DNA from: Escherichia coli
GTDB lineage: Bacteria > Pseudomonadota > Gammaproteobacteria > Enterobacterales > Enterobacteriaceae
Direction: 5' to 3' (one strand)
NCBI RefSeq assembly: GCF_003334385.1
Contig: NZ_QOWN01000005.1
DNA length: 64,000 nt
The stretch's first letter is position 1; every line of letters begins with the position of its first letter. The translations under genes and the position numbers were made by a program. This document shows positions 32,007 to 39,416 of the stretch, piece by piece. The notes under the pieces were generated by a model. It searched no databases, had not been told where the DNA came from, and saw only the letters and a program-made list of their open reading frames with translations.

Positions 32007-33899
32007 TTACATCACCAGACGGCGAATGTCAGACAGCGTGTTGTTAATGATGGTAATGAAACGGGCACCATCAGCACCGTCGATCACGCGGTGGTCGAAG
32101 GAGAGAGAAATCGGCAGCATCAGACGCGGCACGAACTCTTTACCATTCCACACCGGCTCCATCGCGGACTTGGAAACGCCGAGGATAGCCACTTCCGGCG
32201 CGTTCACAATCGGCGCGAAGTGGGTAGTACCCAGGCCGCCGATGCTGGAGATGGTGAAGCAACCGCCCTGCATTTCGCCCGCAGTCAGCTTACCGTCACG
32301 CGCTTTCTTAGAAATAGTCATCAGCTCGCGAGACAGCTCGATGATGCCTTTCTTGTTGACGTCTTTGAATACCGGAACAACCAGACCGTTCGGGGTATCC
32401 ACCGCCACACCGATGTTGATGTATTTCTTCAGGGTCAGACGCTGACCGTCTTCCGACAGCGAACTATTGAAGCGAGGCATCTGCTCAAGAGCTGCAGCAA
32501 CGGCTTTCATGATGAAGACAACCGGGGTGATCTTCACATCCAGCTTACGTTTCGCCGCTTCTTCGTTCTGCTGTTTACGGAACGCTTCCAACTCGGTGAT
32601 ATCGGTTTTGTCGAAGTGAGTAACATGCGGGATCATTACCCAGTTACGGCTCAGGTTCGCACCAGAGATTTTCTGGATGCGGCCCAGTTCCACTTCTTCG
32701 ATTTCACCAAACTTGCTGAAGTCCACCTTCGGCCACGGCAGCATGCCAGGGATACCACCGCCAGTCGCTGCCGGAGCTGCTTCTGCACGTTTGATAGCTT
32801 CTTTCACGTAAGCCTGAACGTCTTCGCGCAGGATACGACCTTTACGGCCAGTGCCCTTCACTTTCGCAAGGTTAACACCAAACTCGCGTGCCAGACGGCG
32901 GATCAGCGGAGTCGCGTGAACATAAGCGTCGTTTTCAGCAAATTCAGATTTGCCTTCCGCTTTCGCAGCTGGTGCTGCTGCCGGGGCTTCAGCTTTTGCT
33001 GCCGGTGCCGGCGCTGCCGCTTCCTGTTTCGCAGGAGCTGCCGCAGGCGCTGCGCCTTCAACTTCGAAGATCATAATCAGCGAGCCAGTTTTCACTTTAT
33101 CGCCAACGTTGACTTTCAGTTCCTTCACGACGCCTGCAAACGGCGCCGGAACTTCCATAGAAGCTTTGTCGCCTTCTACGGTGATCAGTGACTGTTCAGC
33201 GGCAACTTTGTCGCCCACTTTCACCATCACTTCAGTCACTTCAACTTCGTCACCGCCGATATCCGGAACGTTAACTTCTTTCACGCCAGCCGCTGGTGCA
33301 GGGGCCGCTGCCGGAGCTGCTTCCTGTTTAGCGGCCGGAGCTGCCGCGCCTGCTTCACCCGCGACTTCGAAGACCATAATCAGCGAGCCGGTAGACACTT
33401 TGTCACCCACGTTCACTTTGATCTCTTTCACGGTGCCAGCAAACGGAGCCGGAACTTCCATAGAAGCCTTGTCGCCTTCTACGGTGATCAGCGACTGTTC
33501 AGCTTCAACTTTATCGCCAACTTTCACCAGGATTTCGGTCACTTCAACTTCGTCGCTGCCGATATCCGGAACGTTAACGTCTTTTGCCGCCGCAGCCGCT
33601 GGTGCTGCTGCCGGAGCTGCTTCTTTCTTCTCTTCTGCCTGAGCAGGTGCAGCGTCTGCTGCACCGTCGGCGGAATCGAAAATCATAATCAGTGCGCCGG
33701 TCTGGGTTTTATCGCCAACAGAGACTTTGATCTCTTTAACGATACCCGCCTGCGGAGACGGAACTTCCATAGAGGCTTTGTCGCCTTCTACGGTGATCAG
33801 CGACTGTTCGGCTTCAACTTTGTCGCCCACTTTGACCAGGATCTCGGTGATTTCAACTTCATCAGCCCCGATGTCCGGTACTTTGATTTCGATAGCCAT
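32007..33899 (-). CDS. aceF: pyruvate dehydrogenase E2, dihydrolipoyllysine-residue acetyltransferase
   Basis: 630 aa with three lipoyl domains ([10 protein letters not shown] x3), Ala/Pro linkers and a catalytic domain with the DHR motif. Confidence 0.96.
33051..33899 (-). repeat. three tandem ~300-bp imperfect repeats encoding the lipoyl domains of AceF
   Basis: Protein-level triplication visible in the translation (residues ~1-283). Confidence 0.85.
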
Positions 33900-33913: not shown

Positions 33914-36577
33914 TTACGCCAGACGCGGGTTAACTTTATCTGCATCGATGTTGAATTTGGCGATTGCGTCAGCAACCACTTTCTTATCGATTTCGCCACG
34001 TTTAGCCAGTTCGCCCAGCGCCGCAACCACGACATAAGAAGCATCAACTTCGAAGTGGTGACGCAGGTTCTCACGGCTGTCGGAACGACCGAAGCCATCA
34101 GTACCCAGTACGCGGTAGTCGTCAGCCGGTACGTAAGTACGGACCTGCTCAGCGAACAGTTTCATATAGTCGGTAGATGCCACTGCCGGAGCGTCGTTCA
34201 TCACCTGAGCGATATACGGAACGCGCGGAGTTTCCAGCGGGTGCAGCATGTTCCAGCGTTCACAATCCTGACCATCACGCGCCAGCTCGGTGAAGGAGGT
34301 CACGCTATAAACGTCAGAACCTACGCCGTAATCTTTCGCCAGGATCTCAGCTGCTTCACGGACGTGACGCAGGATAGAACCGGAGCCGAGCAGCTGAACT
34401 TTACCTTTGCTACCTTCAATAGTTTCGAGTTTGTAGATACCTTTACGGATACCTTCCTCAGCACCTTCCGGCATTGCCGGCATGTGGTAGTTTTCGTTCA
34501 GCGTAGTGATGTAGTAGTAAACGTTCTCTTGTTTTTCACCGTACATACGCTCCAGACCGTCATGCATGATGACAGCAACTTCGTAAGCGTAAGCCGGGTC
34601 GTAAGAGATACAGTTCGGGATAGTCAGCGACTGAATGTGGCTGTGACCATCTTCGTGCTGCAGACCTTCGCCGTTCAGGGTGGTACGACCGGAAGTACCG
34701 CCGATCAGGAAGCCACGCGCTTGCTGGTCGCCAGCCGCCCAGCACAGATCGCCAATACGCTGGAAGCCGAACATCGAGTAATAGATGTAGAACGGGATCA
34801 TCGGCAGATTGTTGGTGCTGTAAGAGGTCGCCGCTGCCAGCCAGGAACAACCTGCGCCCAGCTCGTTGATCCCTTCCTGCAGAATCTGACCTTTCTCGTC
34901 TTCTTTATAGTAAGCAACCTGCTCGCGGTCCTGCGGGGTGTACTGCTGACCGTTCGGGCTGTAAATACCAATCTGACGGAACAGACCTTCCATACCGAAA
35001 GTACGCGCTTCGTCGGCGATGATCGGTACCAGACGATCTTTGATCGACTTGTTCTTCAGCATCACGTTCAGAGCACGAACGAAAGCGATAGTGGTAGAGA
35101 TCTCTTTGCTCTGCTCTTCCAACAGCGCGCCGAAGTCTTGCAGGCTCGGCAGCTCAAGCTTCTCGGTGAAGTTCGGCTGACGGCTTGGCAGATAACCGTG
35201 CAGTTTCTGACGCTGAGCGTGCAGATAGGTATGCTCTTCAGAACCTTCCGGGAAGGTGATGTACGGCAGTTTTTCGATATCTGCATCAGACACCGGCACA
35301 TTGAAACGGTCGCGGATATGACGCACACCGTCCATGTTCATTTTCTTAACCTGGTGCGCGATGTTTTTACCTTCAGCCGCGTCGCCCATGCCGTAACCTT
35401 TAATGGTATGAGCAAGGATTACTGTCGCTTTGCCTTTGGTTTCCTGCGCTTTCTTGAATGCAGCGTAGATTTTCTTCGGATCGTGACCACCACGGTTCAG
35501 TGCCCAGATCTGCTCGTCAGTCCAGTCTGCAACCAGTGCTGCGGTTTCAGGATATTTACCGAAGAAGTGTTCACGAACGTACGCACCATCTTTCGATTTG
35601 AAGGTCTGGTAGTCGCCGTCAACGGTTTCGTTCATCAGCTGGATCAGTTTACCGCTGGTATCCTTACGCAGCAGTTCATCCCAACGGCTACCCCACATCA
35701 CTTTGATCACGTTCCAGCCAGCACCTTCGAAGATGCCTTCCAGTTCGTTGATGATCTTGCCGTTACCGGTGACCGGGCCGTCAAGACGCTGCAGGTTACA
35801 GTTGATAACGAAGACCAGGTTATCCAGTTTTTCACGGGTAGCGATGGTGATCGCACCTTTGGATTCCGGTTCGTCCATTTCACCGTCACCGAGGAACGCG
35901 TAAACGGTTTGTTTAGAGGTATCTTTCAGGCCACGGTGTTCCAGATATTTCAGGAATTTAGCCTGGTAAATAGCACCAATCGGACCCAGACCCATAGATA
36001 CGGTCGGGAACTGCCAGAATTCCGGCATCAGTTTCGGGTGCGGATAGGAAGAGAGGCCATTGCCGTGAACTTCCTGACGGAAGTTATCCAGCTGCTCCTG
36101 AGTCAGACGACCTTCCAGGAAAGCACGAGCGTACACGCCCGGGGAGATGTGGCCCTGGAAGTAAACCAGGTCGCCGCCATCCTGCTCGTTGCGTGCACGG
36201 AAGAAGTGGTTAAAGCACACATCATAAATGGTTGCGGAAGACTGGAAGGACGCCATATGGCCGCCCAGTTCGAGGTCTTTTTTCGACGCACGCAGCACCG
36301 TCATGATGGCGTTCCAGCGGATAGCTGAACGAATACGGCGTTCCAGTTCCAGATTACCCGGATACTCCGGTTGTTCTTCAACGGGGATGGTGTTGATGTA
36401 GTTGCTGATACCTGTGCCTGCGGCTACGTTTACACCGCCTTTGCGGGCTTCAGCAAGCAGTTGGTCGATCAGATACTGAGCACGCTCAACACCTTCTTCA
36501 CGGATGACCGATTCGATCGCCTGGAGCCAGTCGCGAGTTTCGATCGGATCCACGTCATTTGGGAAACGTTCTGACAT
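33914..36577 (-). CDS. aceE: pyruvate dehydrogenase E1 component
   Basis: 887-aa translation recognised as AceE ([21 protein letters not shown]...). Confidence 0.96.
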
Positions 36578-36737: not shown

Positions 36738-37502
36738 CTAATTCTTTCGTTGCTCCAGACGACGCAGAGAACGCTCACGGCGGCTCTCTTCACGACTTCT
36801 GTCGAGCAAAATTTCTTCGATAAAGGCCAGATGGCGATGCGATGCTTCGCGCGCTTCTTCCGGCTTACCGGCCATAATCGCTTCAAATATGCGGGTGCGG
36901 TGACTACTCACCAGCGGCAGCATCTCGCGACGCGAATAGAGCAATTCGAAGTTCTGGCGGACATTCTGGGCCAACATCGGCTCCATACACCTTAGCAGAT
37001 GAAGCAGAACCACATTGTGGGCCGCTTCGGTGACGGCAATCTGATACTGGAGTACGGCGTTTGATTCCGCGTCCAGATCGCCAGACTGCTGCGCCAGCTC
37101 TATGGCGTGGTGGAGTTCACGGATGCGTTCCTTGTCTTCATCGGTACTACGCAGCGCGGCGTAATAAGCGGCGATACCTTCCAGGGCGTGTCGTGTTTCG
37201 AGCAAGTCATACTGTGACTCAGGATGGTCGGAGAGCAGCTCCACCAGCGGATCGCTGAAGCTTTGCCATAGGCTGCTCTGGACAAAAGTGCCGCCACCCT
37301 GGCGACGAAGCAACAAGCCCTTCGCTTCGAGACGTTGAATCGCCTCACGCAAGGAGGGACGGGAGACGTCAAACTGTTTTGCCAGTTCGCGTTCCGGTGG
37401 GAGTTTTTCGCCCGGGCGGAGAGTGCCTTCGAGGATCAAAAACTCCAGTTGCTGCTCAATCACATCGGAGAGTTTTGGTTGGCGGATTTTGCTGTAGGCC
37501 AT
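36738..37502 (-). CDS. pdhR: GntR-family pyruvate-responsive repressor
   Basis: Start set at [20 protein letters not shown]... (254 aa); GntR-type HTH. Confidence 0.93.
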
Positions 37503-37533
37503 GAGTTCCTGTCTTAAGCCACTTGCCGAAGTC

Positions 37534-37550
37534 AATTGGTCTTACCAATT
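37534..37550. promoter_or_regulatory. PdhR operator palindrome AATTGGT-N3-ACCAATT
   Basis: Perfect 7-bp inverted repeat 32 bp upstream of the pdhR start; matches the PdhR box as I recall it. Confidence 0.7.
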
Positions 37551-37953
37551 TCATGTCTGTGACGCTAAAGTAACAAAGTATTCACCTTATGTCCATACAG
37601 GTTTTGATTGAAATCATGAAACTGTGCACATTTTAACAACTTGACATATATAACGTTTCAAAGTTGTAACTATGCACAAATGTAGACTTTACGTAGGAAA
37701 GGAGTTTTTTAACGATTATTAAACTATAAAAATCCGAATTGAACCGATTCACTTACCAATTTTGTGATTTTTAATTCAATTAAAACGAATTTAAATTCAT
37801 TCTACATATTGAGAGGGGTTGAGGCTGAGCTTTACAAACGGTTTCTTTTTAAGCAACTCATCTTCAACCATGCATAAAGCGGGTGCATTCGCTGCCGCAT
37901 ACCATTATTCTTGATCTGACGGAAGTCTTTTTGTAACAATTCAAACTTCTTTG

Positions 37954-37971
37954 ATGTAAACAAATTAATAC
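37954..37971. promoter_or_regulatory. candidate TyrR box (TGTAAA-N6-AATACA) upstream of aroP
   Basis: One perfect half-site and one imperfect half-site with correct spacing; aroP is a TyrR-regulon member by established knowledge. Confidence 0.3.
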
Positions 37972-38042
37972 AACAAACGGAATTGCAAACTTACACACGC
38001 ATCACTGCGTAGATCAAAAAAACAACCACCGCACGAGGTTTC

Positions 38043-39416
38043 ATGATGGAAGGTCAACAGCACGGCGAGCAGCTAAAGCGCGGCCTTAAAAACCGCCATA
38101 TTCAGCTTATCGCGCTGGGTGGCGCGATAGGGACCGGGTTATTCCTGGGTAGCGCCTCCGTAATACAGTCCGCAGGGCCAGGGATTATCCTGGGTTACGC
38201 CATTGCTGGTTTTATCGCCTTTCTGATCATGCGTCAGCTGGGTGAAATGGTGGTCGAAGAACCTGTCGCAGGCTCCTTTAGCCACTTTGCTTATAAATAC
38301 TGGGGCAGTTTTGCCGGTTTCGCCTCTGGCTGGAACTACTGGGTACTGTACGTTTTAGTTGCCATGGCTGAGCTGACTGCCGTGGGTAAATACATTCAGT
38401 TCTGGTATCCGGAAATCCCCACCTGGGTTTCTGCCGCCGTATTCTTTGTGGTGATTAACGCCATCAACCTGACCAACGTTAAAGTGTTTGGCGAGATGGA
38501 GTTCTGGTTTGCCATTATCAAAGTTATCGCGGTGGTAGCGATGATCATCTTCGGCGGCTGGCTGCTATTCAGTGGCAACGGCGGCCCGCAGGCGACCGTT
38601 AGCAACCTGTGGGATCAGGGTGGTTTCCTGCCGCACGGCTTCACCGGGCTGGTGATGATGATGGCGATTATCATGTTCTCGTTCGGTGGTCTGGAACTGG
38701 TGGGGATCACCGCAGCAGAAGCTGATAACCCGGAGCAAAGTATACCGAAAGCAACTAACCAGGTTATCTACCGCATCCTGATTTTCTATATTGGTTCGTT
38801 AGCCGTTCTGCTCTCACTGATGCCGTGGACCCGCGTTACCGCCGATACCAGTCCGTTTGTGCTGATCTTCCACGAGTTAGGCGATACCTTTGTGGCGAAT
38901 GCGCTGAACATCGTGGTACTGACTGCGGCGCTCTCCGTGTACAACAGCTGCGTATATTGCAACAGCCGTATGCTGTTTGGTCTGGCACAACAGGGTAATG
39001 CGCCAAAAGCGCTGGCGTCTGTCGATAAACGTGGTGTACCAGTAAATACCATTCTGGTGTCTGCACTGGTAACGGCGTTGTGCGTACTGATTAACTACCT
39101 TGCCCCAGAGTCCGCTTTCGGACTGTTAATGGCGCTGGTGGTATCTGCACTGGTAATCAACTGGGCGATGATTAGCCTGGCGCATATGAAATTCCGTCGC
39201 GCCAAGCAGGAACAAGGCGTGGTAACTCGCTTCCCTGCTCTACTTTATCCGCTGGGTAACTGGATCTGCCTGCTGTTTATGGCGGCGGTACTGGTGATTA
39301 TGCTGATGACCCCAGGAATGGCGATTTCGGTATACCTGATCCCGGTATGGCTGATCGTGTTAGGTATCGGCTATCTGTTTAAAGAGAAAACCGCCAAAGC
39401 CGTAAAAGCGCATTAA
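38043..39416 (+). CDS. aroP: aromatic amino acid:H+ symporter (APC family)
   Basis: 457 aa, polytopic membrane protein; recognised as AroP. Confidence 0.95.
   Translation: MMEGQQHGEQLKRGLKNRHIQLIALGGAIGTGLFLGSASVIQSAGPGIILGYAIAGFIAFLIMRQLGEMVVEEPVAGSFSHFAYKYWGSFAGFASGWNYWVLYVLVAMAELTAVGKYIQFWYPEIPTWVSAAVFFVVINAINLTNVKVFGEMEFWFAIIKVIAVVAMIIFGGWLLFSGNGGPQATVSNLWDQGGFLPHGFTGLVMMMAIIMFSFGGLELVGITAAEADNPEQSIPKATNQVIYRILIFYIGSLAVLLSLMPWTRVTADTSPFVLIFHELGDTFVANALNIVVLTAALSVYNSCVYCNSRMLFGLAQQGNAPKALASVDKRGVPVNTILVSALVTALCVLINYLAPESAFGLLMALVVSALVINWAMISLAHMKFRRAKQEQGVVTRFPALLYPLGNWICLLFMAAVLVIMLMTPGMAISVYLIPVWLIVLGIGYLFKEKTAKAVKAH

Follow-up and report, generated by a model that had tools for sequence, protein, structure and literature searches.

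The palindromic element at positions 37534–37550 of the window (the whole 64-kb stretch of E. coli chromosomal DNA that was analyzed) is almost certainly the known PdhR operator of E. coli, which mediates pyruvate-relieved autorepression of the pdhR-aceE-aceF-lpd operon. The element, also designated pdh operator or PdhR box, reads AATTGGTCTTACCAATT on the plus strand, is assigned to neither strand and occupies positions +11 to +27 of the pdhR transcript. Its identification is based on the sequence itself, the published box, the score of a PdhR weight matrix and conservation across species, and nothing that contradicts it was found in the sequence, in the conservation or in the comparison with the literature. 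As an operator that ties the pyruvate level to expression of the pyruvate dehydrogenase complex it represents a textbook case of autoregulation; the element is already known, and nothing new emerges about the operator itself.

The pdhR operon and its chromosomal setting

In the window, aroP (38043–39416, plus strand; an NCBIfam equivalog match) is arranged divergently from pdhR, which is followed on the opposite strand by aceE, aceF and lpd. The gene pdhR (36738–37502, minus strand) encodes a protein of 254 amino acids, a pyruvate-sensing repressor of the GntR/FadR family, which matches the NCBIfam equivalog NF007001 with 495.7 bits (cut-off 330) and is identical to RefSeq WP_000331776.1. Co-transcribed with pdhR is aceE (33914–36577, minus strand; TIGR00759, 1645.8 bits), encoding pyruvate dehydrogenase E1, followed by aceF for the E2 acetyltransferase (32007–33899, minus strand; NF008814, 1101.5 bits) and lpd for dihydrolipoyl dehydrogenase (30258–31715, minus strand; TIGR01350, 501.3 bits). 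The limits given for lpd are those of a mechanically called reading frame; since the TIGR01350 profile match starts at residue 18, the true start probably lies about 33 nt further inside. The longest mechanical reading frame of pdhR, in turn, begins with a TTG at 37535 and thus within the box. The start codon of pdhR is the ATG at 37502 and not this TTG, because the NCBIfam PdhR profile aligns with residues 1–254 of 254 and the RefSeq annotation agrees. The cognate repressor is accordingly encoded next to the site, and the box is situated in the control region of pdhR-aceE-aceF-lpd, an operon of the PdhR regulon. The aroP-pdhR spacer as a whole finds matches in 5424 of 5426 complete E. coli genomes, with 95–100% identity.

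Sequence, position and uniqueness of the box

The box is a perfect palindrome of the 7-N3-7 type, whose arms AATTGGT and ACCAATT are exact reverse complements separated by a spacer of 3 nt. The dyad stops at the edges of the box, with C at 37533 and T at 37551. On the pdhR strand (minus) the element reads AATTGGTAAGACCAATT, and 31 bases separate it from the ATG of pdhR (37502–37500), which places the nearest base of the box at −32. All 14 specified positions of the PdhR-box dyad AATTGGT-N3-ACCAATT are matched, and the core GGTnnnACC is present as GGTCTTACC at 37538–37546.

Throughout the 64-kb window the box is the sole perfect match to AATTGGTNNNACCAATT, at a chance expectation of 2.1e-4 calculated from base composition; if up to two mismatches to the pattern are allowed, shuffled sequences contain 0.37 matches on average. 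Generic 7-N3-7 palindromes are common, with seven observed in the window versus 3.9 expected, and the signal therefore lies in the fit to the PdhR consensus and not in palindromy itself. With a symmetrised weight matrix derived from the PdhR sites of six other genes (cyoA, ndh, grcA, glcD, ppsA, and wzc), the box scores 22.5 bits out of a maximum of 24.4, 8 bits above the runner-up in the 64 kb, which reaches 14.4. An earlier reading made from the sequence only had described a perfect AATTGGT-CTT-ACCAATT palindrome 32 bp upstream of the pdhR start and had proposed a motif scan as a check; both the symmetry and the distance are borne out, and in the scan the box ranks as the best site of the window.

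The runner-up, AATTCGTACTACCAACT at 55672–55688, carries two mismatches, one of which falls in the GGT core, and belongs to the final codons of ddlB, 20 nt ahead of the ATG of ftsQ. Since its GGT core is broken and about 0.37 such matches are expected, it was treated as a chance match and is probably non-functional. For mraZ, however, a role of PdhR in controlling the dcw cluster has been suggested (PMC3265435).

Promoter geometry

Olvera et al. 2009 (PMC2759082) mapped the transcription start of the pdhR promoter, pdhRp, to an A that precedes the ATG by 58 nt. The promoter sequence given in that report, which ends at the start site, maps exactly to positions 37598–37560 of the window and thereby places the start at 37560 on the minus strand. 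From this it follows that the box extends from +11 to +27 with its centre at +19, a position fit for repression. The 58-nt untranslated leader of the pdhR mRNA (37503–37560, minus strand) holds both the operator and a Shine-Dalgarno-like AGGA. Read relative to the published start, TACTTT at 37567–37572 (positions −12 to −7) is the probable −10 hexamer, and TGGACA at 37590–37595, set apart from it by a spacer of 17 nt, the probable −35 hexamer, both on the minus strand. Both in a box-anchored profile and in an alignment of Enterobacteriaceae, the −10 and −35 blocks are kept across genera at a constant distance from the box, and the −35 hexamer TGGACA is unchanged throughout the Enterobacteriaceae alignment. 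The −10 hexamer fits the consensus poorly. A scan of 37400–38100 for consensus promoters and terminators returned neither a sigma-70 promoter nor a terminator, matching the remark on 'poor sigma-70 elements' of the pdhR promoter in PMC2759082. As no consensus promoter was called, the two hexamers were assigned from the published start together with their conservation.

This geometry modifies one point of the sequence-only reading, which had let the box overlap the promoter. The box is within reach of a bound polymerase, but instead of covering the −10 or −35 hexamer it lies just downstream of the transcription start. What the analysis adds is thus the confirmation that the sequence-only reading was accurate, together with this single correction, that the operator at +11 to +27 stays off the core promoter hexamers. 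The further claim that PdhR regulates its own operon through the box is well supported, since the sequence is identical to that of the published operator, of the footprinted site and of the site under the gSELEX peak described below.

Conservation of the box

Of 5426 complete E. coli genomes, at least 5408 are matched by a 31-base query with the box in its middle, a match for which an exact 28-mer is required. With a 46-base query 5424 genomes match, 5383 of them without any mismatch, and in the one variant that was inspected the difference falls outside the box.

For a comparison across species, pdhR loci were collected from one genome per species by means of a degenerate codon pattern that encodes the N-terminus of PdhR (MAYxxIRQPKLxD) and is independent of the operator. 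The scan yielded 120 loci under 45 genus-level labels, comprising Enterobacterales, Vibrionaceae and Ferrimonas. Upstream sequence of 200 bp or more was available for 116 loci, and a search of up to 400 bp from the ATG found a perfect box at 115 of them; the sole exception is Ferrimonas, where the box has two mismatches. The element is conserved down to about 64% identity of the PdhR protein. All 14 arm positions are unchanging across the loci (2 bits each), the spacer occurs in seven forms (ATT, AAG, AAT, CTT, CAT, ATG, and CAG), and gaps of 28–33 nt between box and ATG are the commonest. The survey thus reveals tight constraint on the 14 arm bases across Enterobacterales and Vibrionaceae. 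Since PdhR regulons have been reconstructed comparatively for 55 proteobacterial genomes (PMC5343134), conservation of the PdhR site is likewise not new in principle.

Directly 3′ of the box, as read along the pdhR strand, the triplet GAC (37531–37533) is conserved across genera nearly as well as the arms and does not continue the dyad. It may extend the operator asymmetrically or reflect constraint acting on the leader.

Location within the leader raises the question whether the palindrome acts mainly as RNA, forming a 7-bp hairpin that governs stability or translation of the pdhR mRNA. The AAUUGGU/ACCAAUU stem is indeed present in both the minimum-energy and the centroid fold of the leader. 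However, the fold is no better than that of shuffled sequences (z = 0.16; 106 of 200 shuffles are as stable or more), and an Rfam scan of 37300–38200 at E <= 1 matched no family. Moreover, the arms show no compensatory changes over the 45 genus labels and the 3-nt 'loop' is free to vary, which suits protein contacts better than a stem, and the motif is also found at untranscribed positions, namely in the distal box of Vibrio upstream of the promoter (see below) and at other PdhR targets (PMC7660256). On the strength of the fold statistics and the Rfam result, an RNA element as the main function was rejected and is regarded as very improbable, whereas a secondary role of the palindrome in the RNA may exist.

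Comparison with the published operator and with related operators

Letter for letter, the box is the published pdh operator. In Table 1 of Anzai et al. 2020 (PMC7660256) it is listed as AATTGGTaagACCAATT with a score of 14/14 in the aroP/pdhR spacer, under the strongest PdhR peak of the gSELEX screen; the same report places the PdhR box of K-12 at position 122052 and names the GGTnnnACC core as needed for tight PdhR binding. Göhler et al. 2011 (PMC3265435) used a 37-base EMSA probe termed 'PdhRop', GCCGAAGTCAATTGGTCTTACCAATTTCATGTCTGTG, which was bound by PdhR and is identical to positions 37525–37561 of the window, and reported an 11.6-fold enrichment of the pdhR site in ChIP; the EMSA that the sequence-only reading had suggested as a check is therefore already on record. 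According to PMC10572922, Quail & Guest 1995 obtained a DNase I footprint from +11 to +27, which equals the position of the box as calculated from the mapped start. The same paper reports repression of more than 1000-fold in vitro and states that PdhR at +19 blocks effective binding of RNA polymerase. A preprint of 2025 describes that ATTGGTAAGACCAAT, put into a heterologous promoter, confers repression by PdhR and induction by pyruvate. Compared with the pdh operator of K-12, the element displays the same 17 bases, the same 31-nt gap to the ATG, the same position from +11 to +27, the same flanking genes and the same PdhR protein. No difference was found, and the two are the same element, the orientation of the window being opposite to that of the K-12 map. 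The pdh operator is already in use as part of pyruvate biosensors.

The present analysis covers the letters of the site, where it stands with respect to the mapped start, that no other perfect match occurs in the window, which repressor the neighbouring gene encodes and how far the site is conserved; physical binding, release by pyruvate and exclusion of the polymerase are supplied by the literature on the identical sequence (PMC3265435, PMC7660256, PMC10572922). Taken together, these data suggest the following mode of action. At low pyruvate, a dimer of PdhR, a member of the FadR subfamily of GntR regulators and the product of the adjoining downstream gene, would occupy both AATTGGT half-sites. 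Bound at +19, the repressor would prevent effective binding of RNA polymerase at pdhRp, resulting in repression of pdhR and of the read-through into aceE, aceF and lpd and hence in negative autoregulation. Binding of pyruvate to PdhR would weaken its affinity for the box and thereby de-repress the operon.

Other PdhR boxes of E. coli (cyoA, ndh, grcA/yfiD, glcD, and ppsA; PMC7660256) are recognized by the same protein and share the AATTGGTnnnACCAATT consensus with its GGTnnnACC core. They match 11 to 13 of the 14 positions, whereas the pdhR box is the only one with 14/14 in the table of that report and displays the strongest peak. More generally, the TGGT-CTT-ACCA of the box conforms to the TKGT/ACMA pattern of FadR-subfamily GntR operators, A/T-rich palindromes with 3 nt between GT and AC (PMC4494728), but the outer AATT bases, unlike this general pattern, are particular to the PdhR/LldR group. 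The operators O1 and O2 of LldR at lldP (PMC10272880) resemble the box as 17-bp palindromes with a TGGT-N3-ACCA core, and one of them is located downstream of the start site as in pdhR. In contrast to the single operator of E. coli pdhR, LldR acts through a pair of operators at each target and prefers C-n-G as central bases.

In view of this similarity, the box might primarily be an operator of a paralogous regulator of the FadR subfamily, for instance LldR or GlcC. Of the 14 specified positions in the LldR box as published, AAnTGGTCnGACCAnTT, it matches 13, and among the NCBIfam families matched by the PdhR protein, LldR and GlcC come next in rank. Against this stands the genomic SELEX of LldR, with eight peaks of which none falls into the aroP/pdhR spacer and with aroP and aceE unmentioned in the corresponding paper, whereas the top peak of the PdhR screen is located in exactly this spacer (PMC7660256). 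Cross-binding of LldR at the box was rejected in the absence of an LldR peak there, and a paralogue as primary ligand appears exceedingly improbable. The idea that the palindrome is a functionless chance event in AT-rich intergenic DNA, which can point to the abundance of generic palindromes and to another one about 220 bp off at 37769, is refuted by conservation and the published binding data, given an expectation of 2e-4 per window for the box pattern and its perfect form at nearly every orthologous locus, and retains practically no probability at all.

A second upstream box in other lineages

Besides the proximal box that corresponds to the PdhR operator of E. coli, a distal box with an intact TGGTnnnACCA core is located 134–142 bp further upstream, equivalent to about 13 helical turns, at 21 of 22 Vibrio loci, where it is often perfect (among them loci L007, L012, L014, L021, L026, L035, L037, L082, L088, L091, and L100). 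It is also found in Salinivibrio (L016, L042), Plesiomonas (L032), Serratia (L029, L034, L064), Yersinia (L006, L086, L087, L102), Dickeya (L041, L049), Brenneria and Chimaeribacter, as well as at one Hafnia and one Edwardsiella locus (further loci L047, L111, L022, and L078). The distal box is missing, with at least five mismatches or a broken core, at the loci of Escherichia, Citrobacter, Enterobacter, Klebsiella, Kluyvera, Erwiniaceae and Morganellaceae. In line with this, a search of the E. coli spacer for a second full PdhR box found none, the second-best sites having at least five mismatches.

In Vibrio, the gene upstream of the distal box, which from its N-terminus we take to resemble ampD, is co-directional with pdhR, and the distal box can thus not serve a divergent promoter. 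It probably serves the control of pdhR itself, in a layout resembling the two operators of LldR. A tentative evolutionary reading of these alignments is that the single-operator layout of E. coli might be derived, an ancestral repression by two operators, possibly with looping and similar to that of LldR at lldP, having been lost in Enterobacteriaceae, Erwiniaceae and Morganellaceae; we consider this possible without favouring it. The distal sites may already be contained in comparative regulon databases.

Other features of the aroP-pdhR spacer

An insertion in the aroP-pdhR spacer is present in about 1060 of 5424 E. coli genomes, CFT073 and ST131 strains among them. The insert of CFT073 (locus L122, 920–5961) comprises a bacteriocin-like gene annotated as tssD, three immunity genes and an IS3 transposase; the tssD-annotated gene is probably the usp bacteriocin-like gene of PAIusp. 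Relative to the window, the spacer is interrupted at about 37644–37692, with CFT073 again similar to the window from about 37644 onward. The insert stops on the upstream side of the pdhR promoter; promoter and operator are undisturbed, and the box is still 31 nt away from the ATG.

Two further blocks of the spacer are strongly conserved across Enterobacteriaceae, namely TGAACCGATTCA at 37740–37751, an imperfect TGAA-N4-TTCA palindrome, and ATAACGTTTCAAAG at 37650–37663. Both resemble the consensus of Cra (FruR) and are candidate sites of this regulator. Repression of pdhR-aceEF-lpd by Cra has been reported (PMC5888115).

Directly adjacent to the first of these blocks, CTTACCAATT at 37752–37761 is an exact 10-base copy of one half-site of the operator plus the spacer (AATTGGTAAG on the pdhR strand), situated 211 bp further upstream than the centre of the operator; its would-be second half does not match. 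As in the Enterobacteriaceae alignment this copy is common, imperfectly, only to E. albertii, it is probably due to chance. A second perfect 7-N3-7 palindrome in the AT-rich spacer, TTTTAATTCAATTAAAA at 37769–37785, for which no match is known, may likewise be a chance occurrence, given the base composition. Finally, TGTAAACAAATTAATACA at 37955–37972, upstream of aroP, resembles a TyrR box (TGTAAA-N6-TTTACA), in keeping with the known control of aroP by TyrR.
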